Source of the DNA: Eledone cirrhosa
Taxonomy: Eukaryota
NCBI GenBank assembly: GCA_964016885.1
Contig: OZ024743.1
Span: forward strand, 181,660,001-181,724,000
Length of the DNA stretch: 64,000 nucleotides
Direction of reading: 5' to 3'
Shown here one piece after another: positions 8,120-63,080 of this stretch (position 1 is its first letter; each line of letters begins with the position of its first letter). A program made the translations under genes and the position numbers. The notes beneath the pieces are model-generated. The model did no database searches. It was not told where the DNA came from and saw only the letters and a list, made by a program, of their open reading frames with translations.

Positions 8120-8390
8120 CGGGTTCAATCGGAAGTAACCATAGTAAGTAGGGTACTCAATACATAGTAGAGATATACAATATTTAATATAGAAATGGCT
8201 TCTACAGGACTAGAACTCTCTCATTCGAAGAAATCATCAGGAAAGCCAATGACGACCACCCATCCTAATCACCACCTTCCCCTATCACCAGAAAACGTAT
8301 AAATACCACCATGGTGGCTTTCCTGATGATTTCCTTCGAATGAAACAGTTCTAGTCCTGTAGAAGCCATTTCTATATAAAATTTCATTTG
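8120..8390. mobile_element. Fold-back PLE-terminus mini-element, family B
   Basis: Inverted arms ~8188-8248 and 8315-8377, flanked by (TG)n and (TA)n; homologous to 62575-62645. Confidence 0.7.
8315..8368 (+). ncRNA. Type I hammerhead ribozyme motif
   Basis: tggctttc-CTGATGA-t(ttc cttc gaa)t-GAAAcag ttctagtc ctGTA-gaagcca; stems I, II and III can all form. Confidence 0.75.
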
Positions 8391-8420
8391 TATATATATA
8401 TATATATATATACACATATA

Positions 8421-8562
8421 TAGAAGTGGTTACACAAGTTAGTTCACCATACCGAGAACACTTGTTCTGGTGAACTAACTTTTGTATAACCACTTCTACC
8501 TAACTCGTCCCATGGACTGAGTGCTCTACCACTACGGATATTACCTTCCAGTGTTCTACCAC
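8421..8562. mobile_element. Fold-back mini-element, family E
   Basis: tagaagtggttacacaagttagttcacca / tggtgaactaacttttgtataaccacttcta inverted pair plus tail; tail homologous to the reverse complement of 29545-29602; (TA)n on both sides. Confidence 0.6.
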
Positions 8563-8577
8563 TATATATATATATAT

Positions 8578-8758
8578 AGTTTCTACTTTTGGCACAAGGC
8601 CAGCAATTACCCAGTGTATTACTGGTACTTAATTTTATCGACCCCTTAAGGATGAAATGCAAAGTTAACCTCGGCGGGATTTGAACTCAGAATGGCAAGG
8701 GCCGTAACTCTATGCGTCAAAGCATGGCGTCCGACCCTCTACCGATACTGCCAATCCA
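8578..8758 (-). mobile_element. tRNA-derived SINE
   Basis: Near-complete reverse complement of the copy at 22158-22348. Confidence 0.9.
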
Positions 8759-8773
8759 ATATATATATATATA

Positions 8774-58508: not shown

Positions 58509-58818
58509 ATAAAGAGACCCTCCATCTCAATTTTAGAGAGAGAGAGATAGAGAGAGAGAGATTGTTGTTCTTCTTTTACATCCATAGCATGTAGTAATCG
58601 CCGACTAGTGCTCCAGTTGATTCCATCAACGGAACTCCCTGCTCATGAAAGGAACGTGTGAGTTCAACCATAACGTAGTTCTCAATCAGATTCGGAAATC
58701 AAACTCATAACCTTAGGTTCCTGAGCTGAACATCCTAAACACATATATACATTATATATATATATGGTGGTGGTGAAAGAGAAATAGATAAATAGACAGA
58801 TAGATAGATTGATAGATA

Positions 58819-59140
58819 TCTTTCTTTATTTGCCACAAGGGCTGACAAAAATGAGACATTGCAAGACGTAACGGCGGGGTTTTACATAAAATCTTCAACA
58901 ATAATGAATAACAATAAACTAAATTTAAAATTTTTTAAATCGAAATCCCCAATAGGGGAGAACGTTACTGCAGGGTTGTTTTACACCCTGTGGATAGAAC
59001 AACCATCAACACCAGGAGCACGTTTTGTAGGCTTTCCCGTCTTCCCTCTGTTTGTCTTCCAGAGAAGGCCCATTTACTCGGGCCATTTTCGCCGCATTCA
59101 CCCACTTTTCAGCGAATTTACTGGGGTGAAGCACCTCTCA
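58819..59140 (-). mobile_element. Short 5'-truncated Tx1-like copy with 11-bp TSD in (GATA)n
   Basis: 3' end cccttgtggcaaataaagaaa; coding end matches 28657-28750; attgatagata at 58808-58818 and 59141-59151. Confidence 0.8.
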
Positions 59141-59157
59141 ATTGATAGATAGATAGA

Positions 59158-62019
59158 TATGTTTCTTTATTAGCCACAGGGTCACAAATGAAGGGGTCGG
59201 ATACAAAGGGGGAAGTTTACATACAATAAAAACGTGTAAAATGCTATCACAAATGCAATTTAAAAATCAATCGATTTTCCCCAATAGGGGAGACATTACA
59301 TATGGGTAACACATACCCCCGAAAAAATGTGCAACCCTCATCTCCAGGAGTAAGAAGAGTGAGTACCCCCTTCCTCTTTTCCTCTTTTTCCTCAACCTAC
59401 AGGCTGATATAGAGAGAAGGCGCAACCACTCGGACCATTCTCGCCACTTTCACCCACCTTTCATAAAACTTTCTGGGGTACCTCTCTCTCCATCCTGATT
59501 CTTCTTCTAAAGTGGTATTTGAAAAAAAGAATCAGTTGTTGGCCGGAGAGAAAGGTGTCTGACCTCAGTCCTTTTAACCTCGTCCACCATACAACCTCTT
59601 TCGCCATAGCTATCACACAAAGGAAAACCGTCTCTCCTTCGTTTTTGAAGGAGGGTGGCGGTTTGATCATGACAATGGACTGGGTGGTGAACCGGATTGG
59701 TCCCACCCGCGACAATAGTCGTTCTACATAGCCCCACAGGTCGGTAACGCCCGGGCAGTGTACGAATGCGTGCGCGACGGTTTCTTTCTTCGTCTCGTGC
59801 GCATCTCGGACAGATCTTTTTCGAAGGGTCCCTGCCCGGGCGCCCATGTCTGTAGAGCTTGTCTCGAACTGGTAGAGCTCCTCAGTAGCACTGCCAGGCC
59901 AGGGACTTTTGGAAGTTGTCCATCGGTCCCGGGTGGAAGCTCCTACCGAACAGACTGGCCAGTTCGTCTTCCTCTATGCCTAGAGTTTCTCCGAGCGCGT
60001 CGTCGTACTTGCTGCGGACCAACGCTCTTTAGAATGACGAAGTGGAGTCTCCACTGATCGCCGGGTCCGCCTGCCAGAGGGCTGTGAGCTCCTGAGCACA
60101 TTCGATGTGCCAGTCGCCCATTTTCCTCGGTCTTTGCTTGACCCAGGATTGCAGCTCGGTCAGCGAGATGAGTCGTGGGAAGGTTCGCATCAGGAACGGG
60201 GACCCACACCGGTTGTCCGGTGAGGAATACGTGGAGGTGCCGCAGCCTGAGCGCGTGTTTGCGCATCGTCAGCCACGGCATCCCCAACCCTCCGTTGGAA
60301 GAGTGTTGGCAGCAGATGGATCTTCTCACCAAAGGAGCCTGCTTCTTCCAAAGGAATTGGAAGAGCGCACGCTCCATTTTGGTGAGCGTTTTGGCTGGAC
60401 AAGGCACGACGGTCGAGCGGTAGTAGATGACGGACGCTATGAAAGCGTTCGCCACCTCTGCTCGACCTTTCAAGGATGGTTTGCACTCGGCCCACTTCTG
60501 GGTGAGTGCAAACACCTTGGCCGTCACCTCGTTCCAGTTCTTCTCCACCTGGAGGTCCGGACTAAACCAGACCCCGAGTAGCTTCACCGGTCCTTCCGTC
60601 CAGCGTCCGATGACGTCATCGTGAGGCATCGGTTTGCCTCTCCACGATCTGAGTTGCAAACCGATGGACTTGTTCCGGTTCAGCTTCGCTCCTGTGAACC
60701 TTTCGTATTCCTTCAGTAAGGTACCGACTTCCTCGATTTGCGAGGTGCTCGACACCATTACTGTCATGTCGTCGGCGTAGGCCGATGCCGCTTTCCGCAG
60801 TACCGGTTCCACAGGGATGCCCTGCAATAGCTCCAACTTCCGCCGTAGTGGCTCGAGAGTCAGTACGTACAGAAGGGAGGAGAGAGGGCATCCCTGTCGG
60901 ATGGATCCCGTGATATGGAATGGCTCCGAGAGGTAGCCGTTCACCTTGACCCTTGAGCAGATGTTGCTGCTGTGCATTGCAGCAATCCAGCCCCTGGACA
61001 CGGGTCCGAAGCCTGCCGCCTCGAGCACCGCATCCAGGTAACGATGGTCAAACCTATCGAAAGCCTTAGACTGATCCAAGTTGATCAGGGCCCCACCGAA
61101 GCCGGGTTTACACCCTACCCTCTCTACGATGTATCGCATGAGGTGGAGGTTGTCGTGTATGGACCTGGTCGGGATTGCGCATGTCTGCGCTTCTCCCACC
61201 AGGTTTTTGACGACAAGCGCCAGCCTCTTTGCCAACACCTTGGCCAAAATCTGTAACTCTGTGTTTAGCAGAGTTATGGGCCGGAAGTTGCCTATGCCAT
61301 CCCCTTATTCTCGTCCTTCCTGACTAGCGTGACTACGCCCTTGGTCACAGAACTGTGAATTCTCCCGTTCTGCTGCCAGTTGCAGTAGACCGCTTCCAGG
61401 AGAACAGAGAACAAGTCCGGCATTGCTACGTAAAATTCGTAGGGTAGACCGTCGAGACCTGGAGATTTGCGTTTGCCGCATTGGCTCAGTTCGTCCTCTA
61501 TCTCAGCAGCCGAAATCGGCCTTTCGCAGAATTTCGCCTCGCTGTCCGAGAGTCGCGGCAGATCGTTGAGGTATGGACCGAAATCCATAGCCCCCCTCGG
61601 CGCGCCGCCCTGCCCGAACAGTTGAGCAAAGTGCCGCTGAAAGGCCGCGCACATCTGCTTCGGCTCACGTTCACGAGAGTCCGTCTTGGTCCTTCAAAGA
61701 CTGAATCGTGGACTTGTTGCCATTTTTCGCCTCCGTCACTCGGGCCCAGCTAACAGCTTTGGCTCCCTCGTTACCCAGAGCACGTATTTTGCTTTTGATA
61801 ACGCAGTCCTTGTGCTTTGCGTCGAATAACTGGGCCAAGGCCGTTCTCGTTGCTAGCACGCTGGCTACGTTGCCACTTCTAATTGCCTCTTCTACTTTAT
61901 CTACCAGTTCCTTCTCGGTCCTGTTTCTATCTAACGCTAATTATTTACTAAAAACTAACGAGTCTAATCTAACTGCCGTCTTGAGAGAGTACCACCATCT
62001 GTTGTTGACAATGGCCCCA
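59158..62019 (-). mobile_element. 5'-truncated Tx1-clade LINE in (GATA)n
   Basis: RT in ORF 59943..61247 (LDQSKAFD, RQGCPLS, AYADD); homologous to 26125-28980; (GATA)n at both ends. Confidence 0.93.
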
Positions 62020-62574
62020 GATAGATAGATAGATAGATAGATAGATAGATAGAGAGAGAGAGAGAGAGAGAGAGAGAGAGAGAGAGAGAGAGAGATGGAG
62101 AATCAGACAGACAAGCAGAGAGACACATTTACATAAAATTAAGGCGTAATTTAGCTGTTTATGCATGACCGGTTAATTAAGTTACACAGCTGAATTTGTT
62201 GAGATTTAGGAGTGGTTGTAAGGAAAAGCAGAGAATACACAATAGCACAAGGTGACCCTTCAACGCCTCTTTAGATTGTCTAGCTTGACAAGTGACTACA
62301 TTGACAATCCTTATTTTATTTGTCATACGGTTTTCTTTTTTCTTTGCCTGTTCTGTGACTTTCTGTTATATACATATATTCTTTTACAGATCATACGTCT
62401 GTGTGCTGGCAAAGTCACCACTTTCATTTTGTCGATCATTTATATATATATATATATATATATATATATAAATGATCGACAAAATGAAAGCGGTGACTTA
62501 TATATATATATATATATATATATATATATATATATATATATATATATATATATATATATATATATATATATATA

Positions 62575-63080
62575 AGTTTTAATATAGATGAGATTCTACA
62601 GGACTAGAACTGTTTCATTCTTTAGAAATCATCAGGAATCTGGGTATCAAAAAATAAAAATGGTATTTATAGGTCTCTACAAGTGGTAGGAGAGGGTGGG
62701 GAGTGGGATGGGTGTAGGTCATTGGTTGATAGAAAAGGGAATTCATTAAAAGCTAATTCAACAAAGCTATAGTTTATTTTTATTTATTTATGTTTTTAGA
62801 GTAACAAGGGCAGACAGAATTCTATAAACAGGTTCCGGATGGCATACCATTCCTTGTCATTAAGTTTCTCTTAAGCTAACAGATGTCTATAAGATCAGTG
62901 GGGGGTCAGTCATGGTCGATAGAATTAAAGCCAGTGTTAAAGCCCGATGGCTAAAAACGACCTCCCCCTATTGGCCCCTATACCTCCTCCCCACCCTACC
63001 CCCACCCCTCCTCAACCTGAAATAAGGCCACTATGGTTATGTAAGTACCTCTTTCGTATCTACATTTTCTGCCTGTAGAG
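62575..63080 (-). mobile_element. PLE-like 3' terminal fragment, family B, with HHR at 62591-62641
   Basis: Minus strand agattc-CTGATGA-tttctaaagaat-GAAAcag ttctagtc ctGTA-gaatct; abuts (TA)n. Confidence 0.7.

Follow-up and report, generated by a model that had tools for sequence, protein, structure and literature searches.

Short fold-back insertions, some carrying all and others part of a hammerhead ribozyme (HHR), recur through a 64,000-nucleotide (nt) stretch of the Eledone cirrhosa genome (contig OZ024743.1 of GenBank assembly GCA_964016885.1, positions 181,660,001 to 181,724,000 of the forward strand; hereafter the window). We identify these short hairpins as the tips of ordinary Penelope-like retrotransposons, set head-to-head in TA repeats. 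The mini-elements (minis) are probably fragments of the pseudo-long terminal repeat (pLTR), or 3′ end, of coding Hydra-clade Penelope-like elements (PLEs), placed head-to-head in (TA)n by two cDNAs that were likely primed at one target and ran off a short sense RNA at its 5′ end. Their breakpoints likely record the start of the transposon RNA and the site of ribozyme cleavage.

Comparison of the window with itself, simple repeats masked, recovered fold-backs at the sites named in a sequence-only reading of this DNA, and with the layout it had described: microsatellite, arm, inverted arm, tail, (TA)n. As that reading had also held, a coding PLE shares the design. This 5′-truncated Hydra element on the minus (−) strand at 50933–54054 has an open reading frame (ORF) at 52398–53540, an inverted 141-nt arm with a 140-nt tail, and HHR cores at 51010(−) and 53834(+); the order arm, junction, arm, one tail and (TA)n holds for it and for the minis. 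The claim that the elements colonize TA repeats likewise holds for coding copies and minis. A second Hydra PLE, near-full-length and broken, lies on the plus (+) strand at 54860–58301, with a long-stem-II HHR at 58127–58238.

Translation and mutual tblastn found reverse transcriptase (RT) with a C-terminal GIY-YIG endonuclease; a Pfam search of the PLE proteins matched no family. A C-terminal GIY-YIG domain and a CxCX5C linker are present in both the ORF at 52398–53540 and the broken element. The second window element and the coding parents of families A and B have an exact DKT, and at the RWK motif they read RWR. CCHH cysteines are missing from the endonucleases, and in the A and B parents CxxC and CxH surround E/N. 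Coding copies also have an HHR near the 3′ end and are inserted in (TA)n. By these features, following the motif criteria of PMC8557442, section 11, we place the coding elements in the Hydra clade of PLEs. The protein search returned 75,474 first-look candidates. In loci L361–L369 the coding copies of family B have 3′ untranslated regions several kb long, swollen by TA arrays.

Six families of ends, namely A, B, D, N15 and the ends of both coding elements, are by sequence continuity the pLTR/3′ ends of coding Hydra-clade PLEs; the link by terminal sequence that had been set beforehand as a check was found for precisely these. For family D (mini at 8421–8562(+), both arms cut within the HHR, 64-nt tail) a chimeric locus leads to a coding element whose end is the window D element, and in all 30 coding copies a microsatellite follows the element end, which takes one of two fixed positions separated by 64 nt. 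Longer copies of family A carry Hydra endonuclease and RT coding sequence, and the A tail runs on into the 5′ end of the ORF in 26 of 30 N-terminal hits. Hydra coding sequence occurs in 7 of 10 long inverted pairs of family B, whose tail continues into a Hydra ORF in L056 and L364. The N15 end (15880–16048(+), with an intact HHR, core 15951) is linked to coding Hydra copies in L370 and L265, and the end at 58127 is similarly linked. Arm lengths grade into coding copies. The otherwise unrelated tails of A, B, D, E and F2 have in common a short TGAGT-R-C motif, which may be a signal for protein binding or for priming.

Family A is present in the window as minis at 9797–10039(+) (half an HHR, a patchwork centre and a 78-nt tail), 11323–11520(+) (60-nt arms, half an HHR and a tail) and 29770–29973(−), with a short mini of an A subfamily at 49030–49136(−) adjoining a family H element. 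Family B is present as a fold-back at 8120–8390(+), in which a tailed short arm on the minus strand (8243–8120) faces a longer plus-strand copy with a TATA box and a complete HHR (core 8323), and as a single end of the B2 subfamily at 62575–62760(−), again with a TATA box and complete HHR (core 62635).

The two arms of an insertion are not equivalent. We scored 44 A insertions with two arms: the tail is on one arm and absent from the other in 40, one arm is unclear in two, and two were scored as double-tailed; none lacks a tail. The tail was the means of retrieving most of these loci; pairs encountered incidentally in flanking sequence and in tiles follow the same rule. Both arms belong to the same subfamily in 27 of 29 scorable A pairs (expected 0.158). 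In some coding insertions the tail is on the short arm, in others on the long copy. Hairpin centres mostly differ from copy to copy, and many are palindromic or microhomology joins. In L081, L085, L086, L097 and L100 a family A arm stands head-to-head with another PLE family, which suggests that two different RNAs are occasionally used at one target. Fold-back of a single cDNA cannot give a tail on either arm or the joining of two families; two primings can give both. We infer that the two arms come from twin priming on sense RNA. In vitro, Poseidon nicks both strands and has two RT start sites, as described in part of PMC11167929.

Where the arms stop is informative for families A and B, the two on which the run-off claim rests; all row counts taken from listings were made by eye. 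Of 138 A arms (a set that leaves out loci chosen for similarity or length), 67 stop in the stem II loop, 34–45 nt upstream of the predicted cut. In family B, 23 of 55 anchor hits, about five of which are spurious, stop 38–46 nt upstream. Both stops are ∼60 nt from the short end, and tailed and untailed A arms stop at the same RNA position. A TATA box begins 30–31 nt upstream of the B stop, and a TATA-like sequence is found 29–31 nt upstream of the stop in two A subfamilies. The initiator match at the stop was scored against what we take to be the consensus. In the first 100 family B rows listed, 22 break at the stop base and nine of these are explained by the partner arm; eight of the remaining 13 junctions have an extra G where the commonest long-copy variant has C (binomial P 0.001–0.006). 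In the first 100 family A rows listed, 16 of the 71 rows with a junction show an extra G, and none of the 29 long rows does. Untemplated G is taken as a sign of a capped template in L1 work (part of PMC6425141). In one run of unspecified kind, the summed depth of contigs over the A parent end rises more than 10-fold across the bin with the proposed start, which we do not use as proof since depth is not copy number. In L005, L244, L247 and L267 the A stop site is immediately preceded by a run of 10–16 T, as if A residues had been added without a template to the cDNA end.

A second peak coincides with the predicted ribozyme cut. Non-canonical A arms number 4,610; in the first 100 listed, 14 rows (11 elements) have as their first base exactly the one that follows the predicted cut, and nine more are ambiguous for this start; neighbouring positions have 1–4 rows each, save a stem III microhomology site with ∼13. 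In three elements both arms start at the cleavage site and are separated by filler bases; L406 provides one more. Of 90 tailed A arms in the local set, 5 begin at the cleavage site or one base beyond it. The stops fall before, not after, the unpaired cleavage nucleotide, and the pattern needs an intact G run.

Several observations weigh against this account. One A subfamily has no TATA-like box upstream of its stop. Two pairs of B junctions are identical, and the independent extra-G events may therefore number 6 of 11. In family A the extra-G excess is confined to one subfamily (14/36 versus 2/35), and many of its cases can be read as microhomology with the partner arm. Of the 20 full-length A copies reaching the upstream hammerhead, just one begins at the proposed start. 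The other 19 extend further, for which either the RNA would have to be read-through or synthesis would have to jump strand to the redundant 3′ copy; on this count we rejected a hard RNA start for full-length A copies. The stops sit in or beside a structured ribozyme, in which the cleavage site is followed by a G run, and annealing at the C/G run, or pausing at stem III or the structured ribozyme, could mimic both peaks. Parentage has gaps too. The PLE origin put forward in the sequence-only reading stands for the six linked families and was not recovered for seven others: C, E, F, G, H, I and J have no uninterrupted link to a coding copy in 2 Mb of loci, and family E has no coding hit inside the element in 30 targeted loci. 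Family E shows the same two fixed ends as the linked families; E and H may be truly non-autonomous.

The sequence of events that we favour would run as follows. The element protein would nick both strands of a TA array, and one cDNA would be made from each of two fixed RNA sites, giving one tailed and one untailed arm, with the same RNA or the same source locus templating both. Most A and many B arms would then stop, probably at the capped transcription start of the pLTR promoter, some 60 nt upstream of the short start site; a minority of A arms would stop at the hammerhead cut. The two 3′ ends would be sealed through microhomology or filler bases. Because the TATA box is lost, the minis would be mostly dead-end products. 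A narrower version, with chances slightly short of even, makes the mini a retrovirus-like strong-stop product: the RNA would be capped and terminally redundant, both cDNAs would be primed within its 5′ pLTR copy and end by run-off at the cap or the hammerhead cut, and the two would be sealed head-to-head.

The strongest competitor, which we judge unlikely yet worth weighing, keeps the PLE origin and dispenses with defined RNA 5′ ends: RT would stall at the folded ribozyme, and the two nascent cDNAs would anneal at local palindromes, giving the breakpoints. The many palindromic or microhomology centres fit it, as do the breadth of the A peak (34–45 nt) and the full-length copies, most of which start upstream of that peak. 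It does not account for untemplated G together with TATA spacing in B, for stops that precede, and do not follow, the unpaired cleavage nucleotide where both arms have filler bases, or for the single RNA stop position shared by tailed and untailed arms. A further proposal has the minis propagate themselves as non-autonomous hairpin retroelements, with their own transcripts copied in full; this is close to the separate HHR-based hairpin system that the sequence-only reading had inferred. Very high copy number, a few identical junctions at distant loci (the two identical B pairs), the failure of family E to reach far upstream in 30 loci and the resemblance of family H to a permuted retrozyme unit would all suit it. 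However, centres vary by copy, arms of the same subfamilies grade into coding copies, and most A minis lack the 5′ half of the ribozyme and the TATA box. The idea of a separate system is not supported by these observations, and we consider self-propagation improbable. The minis differ from non-LTR retrozymes, whose units run head-to-tail with a complete HHR each; the minis are head-to-head pairs, with family H a possible exception.

Self-priming of a single cDNA on an antisense template has been suggested for rotifer Penelope (in part of PMC3846280). Arms that match within an insertion and common palindromic centres are what it predicts, but it cannot account for insertions that pair a short arm bearing the tail with a long copy lacking it, as at 50933–54054, nor for the joins of two families described above, and we give it very little chance. 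MITE-like DNA transposons (miniature inverted-repeat transposable elements) that target TA would likewise be short, abundant and located as inverted repeats within TA arrays. The feature that would have spoken for them, a constant interior between symmetric terminal inverted repeats, was looked for; we found a one-sided tail, a variable centre and continuity with RT-coding copies. This origin is refuted for A, B, D and N15, and we regard it as next to impossible overall.

The window has a type I core with stems I–III in several elements, A minis not among them. Some ten HHR cores had been reported in the sequence-only reading, and part of that list stands. A strict type I descriptor finds four, at 8323(+), 48882(−), 62635(−) and 15951(+), the last of which had been overlooked, against 0.05 per 64 kb in 20 Markov shuffles. 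By eye, further complete or near-complete cores are at 10536(−) (long stem II, imperfect stem I) and 30421(+). The cores 53834(+) and 51010(−) at the ends of the coding PLE have C at core position 4, that at 58127(+) has a ∼95-nt stem II, and that at 50702(+) is of the U3-A8 type with a weak stem I. The HHR-like sites at 19486 and 29660 are degenerate, and all four window copies of family A, the commonest family, have just the 3′ half of a hammerhead. The hammerhead of the A coding parent has a U3-A8 core and folds into a three-way junction; the minis retain its 3′ half alone. A canonical-core complete hammerhead for family A was tried and rejected: of 161 matches, most of the 30 inspected are point mutants or chimeric joins, and the true parent core is the U3-A8 variant. 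Monomer folding gave the three-way junction for the A parent, roughly for 8323 and not for the other eight cores; z-scores are weak for most cores and are not used as support. An Rfam scan of the window returned no hammerhead family among the best 150 of 222 matches, all sub-threshold and mostly microsatellite-driven microRNA families.

Elsewhere in the genome, tandem 310-nt units with a complete hammerhead in each, retrozyme-like, occupy L066:1–1824 and L070:7124–9692; the L070 array is inverted head-to-head between TA repeats, resembling PLE insertions. A pair of U3-A8 hammerheads in the same orientation, 595 nt apart, in L125:2380–2975 is a possible retrozyme.

The swarm is the background state of this genome. 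TA/CA microsatellites are plentiful in the 3.0-Gb host, an abundance that looks cephalopod-like. A crude detector (inverted pair of at most 600 nt with a microsatellite within 25 nt) counts 13 fold-backs in the window, compared with 42 in 50 evenly spaced 10-kb tiles (500 kb), or 5.4 per 64 kb. The unusual density noted in the sequence-only reading is real to this extent: fold-backs are enriched 2.4-fold (bootstrap P 0.014) in a window that had been picked for this feature. Hammerheads are not exceptional, with 13 strict type I hits in 400 kb of evenly spaced tiles (2.1 per 64 kb) versus four in the window. Extrapolation from the 500-kb sample gives ∼250,000 fold-backs genome-wide. The family A tail has 34,806 exact 22-mer matches in the genome, and one subfamily of B has 10,224 exact core matches.

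The remaining elements of the set are more loosely placed. Family C comprises a fold-back at 10377–10620(−), with a tail and a long-stem-II HHR (core 10536), and a mini at 58314–58510(+), whose HHR halves are divided between the arms. Family E comprises a short hairpin with a tail at 10950–11116(−) and its HHR also lies in a fold-back at 20727–21112(+), at 20945 with one core mismatch. Coding parents of C and E were not found among the loci. Also unlinked to coding copies are a family I end at 19333–19640(−), whose long-stem-II HHR has a damaged core, two adjoining fold-backs, F1 and F2, at 22959–23330(+), with an intact HHR in an F2 relative in L080, and a family G fold-back at 30104–30620(+), with its HHR (core 30421) downstream of the arms. 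Family H at 48694–49033(−) has a minimal canonical HHR (core 48882), and its relatives resemble permuted ∼330-nt units. A diverged relative of family D lies at 29570–29732(−), its HHR degenerate. The single end at 50600–50766(+), with core 50702, has no second copy among the loci compared, and a 28-nt inverted pair flanking (TA)n at 62413–62498 has no HHR.

Outside the fold-back set, the window contains an abundant ∼200-nt family resembling short interspersed elements (SINEs) at 5360–8758, 22144–22583 and 43695–46764, and an internally deleted Tc1/mariner element, inserted in TA, at 8776–9653, with 101–118-nt terminal inverted repeats. A minisatellite of ∼63-nt units, open in several frames, spans 12855–13973. 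Broken elements resembling long interspersed elements (LINEs) occupy 16600–18584, 24170–28977, 33203–36570, 36754–40406 and 59166–62018; we take them to be RTE-, Tx1- and R4-like. The two Tx1-like copies are 84% identical and inverted to each other. A 380-nt unit is single at 18811–19236 and tandem at 31880–32687, its copies 96% identical.

The papers considered here settle neither how the inverted ends of PLEs form nor whether PLE hammerheads cut in vivo, and HHR function is called unclear in the part of PMC8557442 concerned. Tens of thousands of young junctions per family make both questions countable from one genome, at exact positions. If the narrower, strong-stop version is true, about a quarter of a million insertions would be a genomic record of PLE transcription starts and in vivo hammerhead cleavage. 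For annotation, these repeats can pass as SINEs, MITEs or microRNA-like hairpins.

Hydra-clade PLEs, their hammerheads, (TA)n targeting and opposite-strand HHR pairs from truncated PLEs are already published. A literature search of partial coverage found no description of cap- or cleavage-terminated PLE fold-backs. The elements described here share with the Hydra clade, in the part of Craig et al. (2021, PMC8557442) concerned, the C-terminal GIY-YIG domain, CxCX5C linker, DKT and absence of CCHH, as well as hammerheads, (TA)n insertion, the inverted 5′-truncated copy and a tail at one end. They differ in having RWR where that account gives RWK, and tails of 64–140 nt where it gives 30–40; it lists few families outside cnidarians, whereas here the first-look candidates are numerous and short fold-backs dominate. 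Dispersed single HHRs from truncated PLEs, opposite-strand pairs 100–700 bp apart, the U3-A8 core variant and a palindromic loop III are shared with the minimal PLE hammerheads of Cervera and de la Pena (2014, PMC4209133). The relevant part of that paper reports no in vivo cleavage evidence; here genomic breakpoints cluster at the predicted cut. Non-LTR retrozymes, as partly described in bioRxiv 10.64898/2026.07.22.740005, are likewise non-coding and pLTR-derived with a type I HHR; as set out above they differ in arrangement, and minis often have half an HHR.

Poseidon of Anolis in vitro (Frangieh et al. 2024, PMC11167929) shares two RT starts that define the tail, a tail running into the ORF start, and nicking and extension of both strands. 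It belongs to a different clade, and in the passages concerned no RNA reads ended at the HHR site, cleavage was dispensable in vitro and run-off minis are not described. With the Adineta Penelope pLTRs (part of PMC3846280) our elements share a pLTR promoter with TATA and initiator-like sequences, an inverted pLTR with a palindromic junction and a tail carried by one of the inverted pLTRs. Self-priming from an antisense template is preferred there, whereas our data favour two primings on sense RNA. The new part is the junctions, which may record both capped starts and ribozyme cuts and would favour twin priming on sense RNA.

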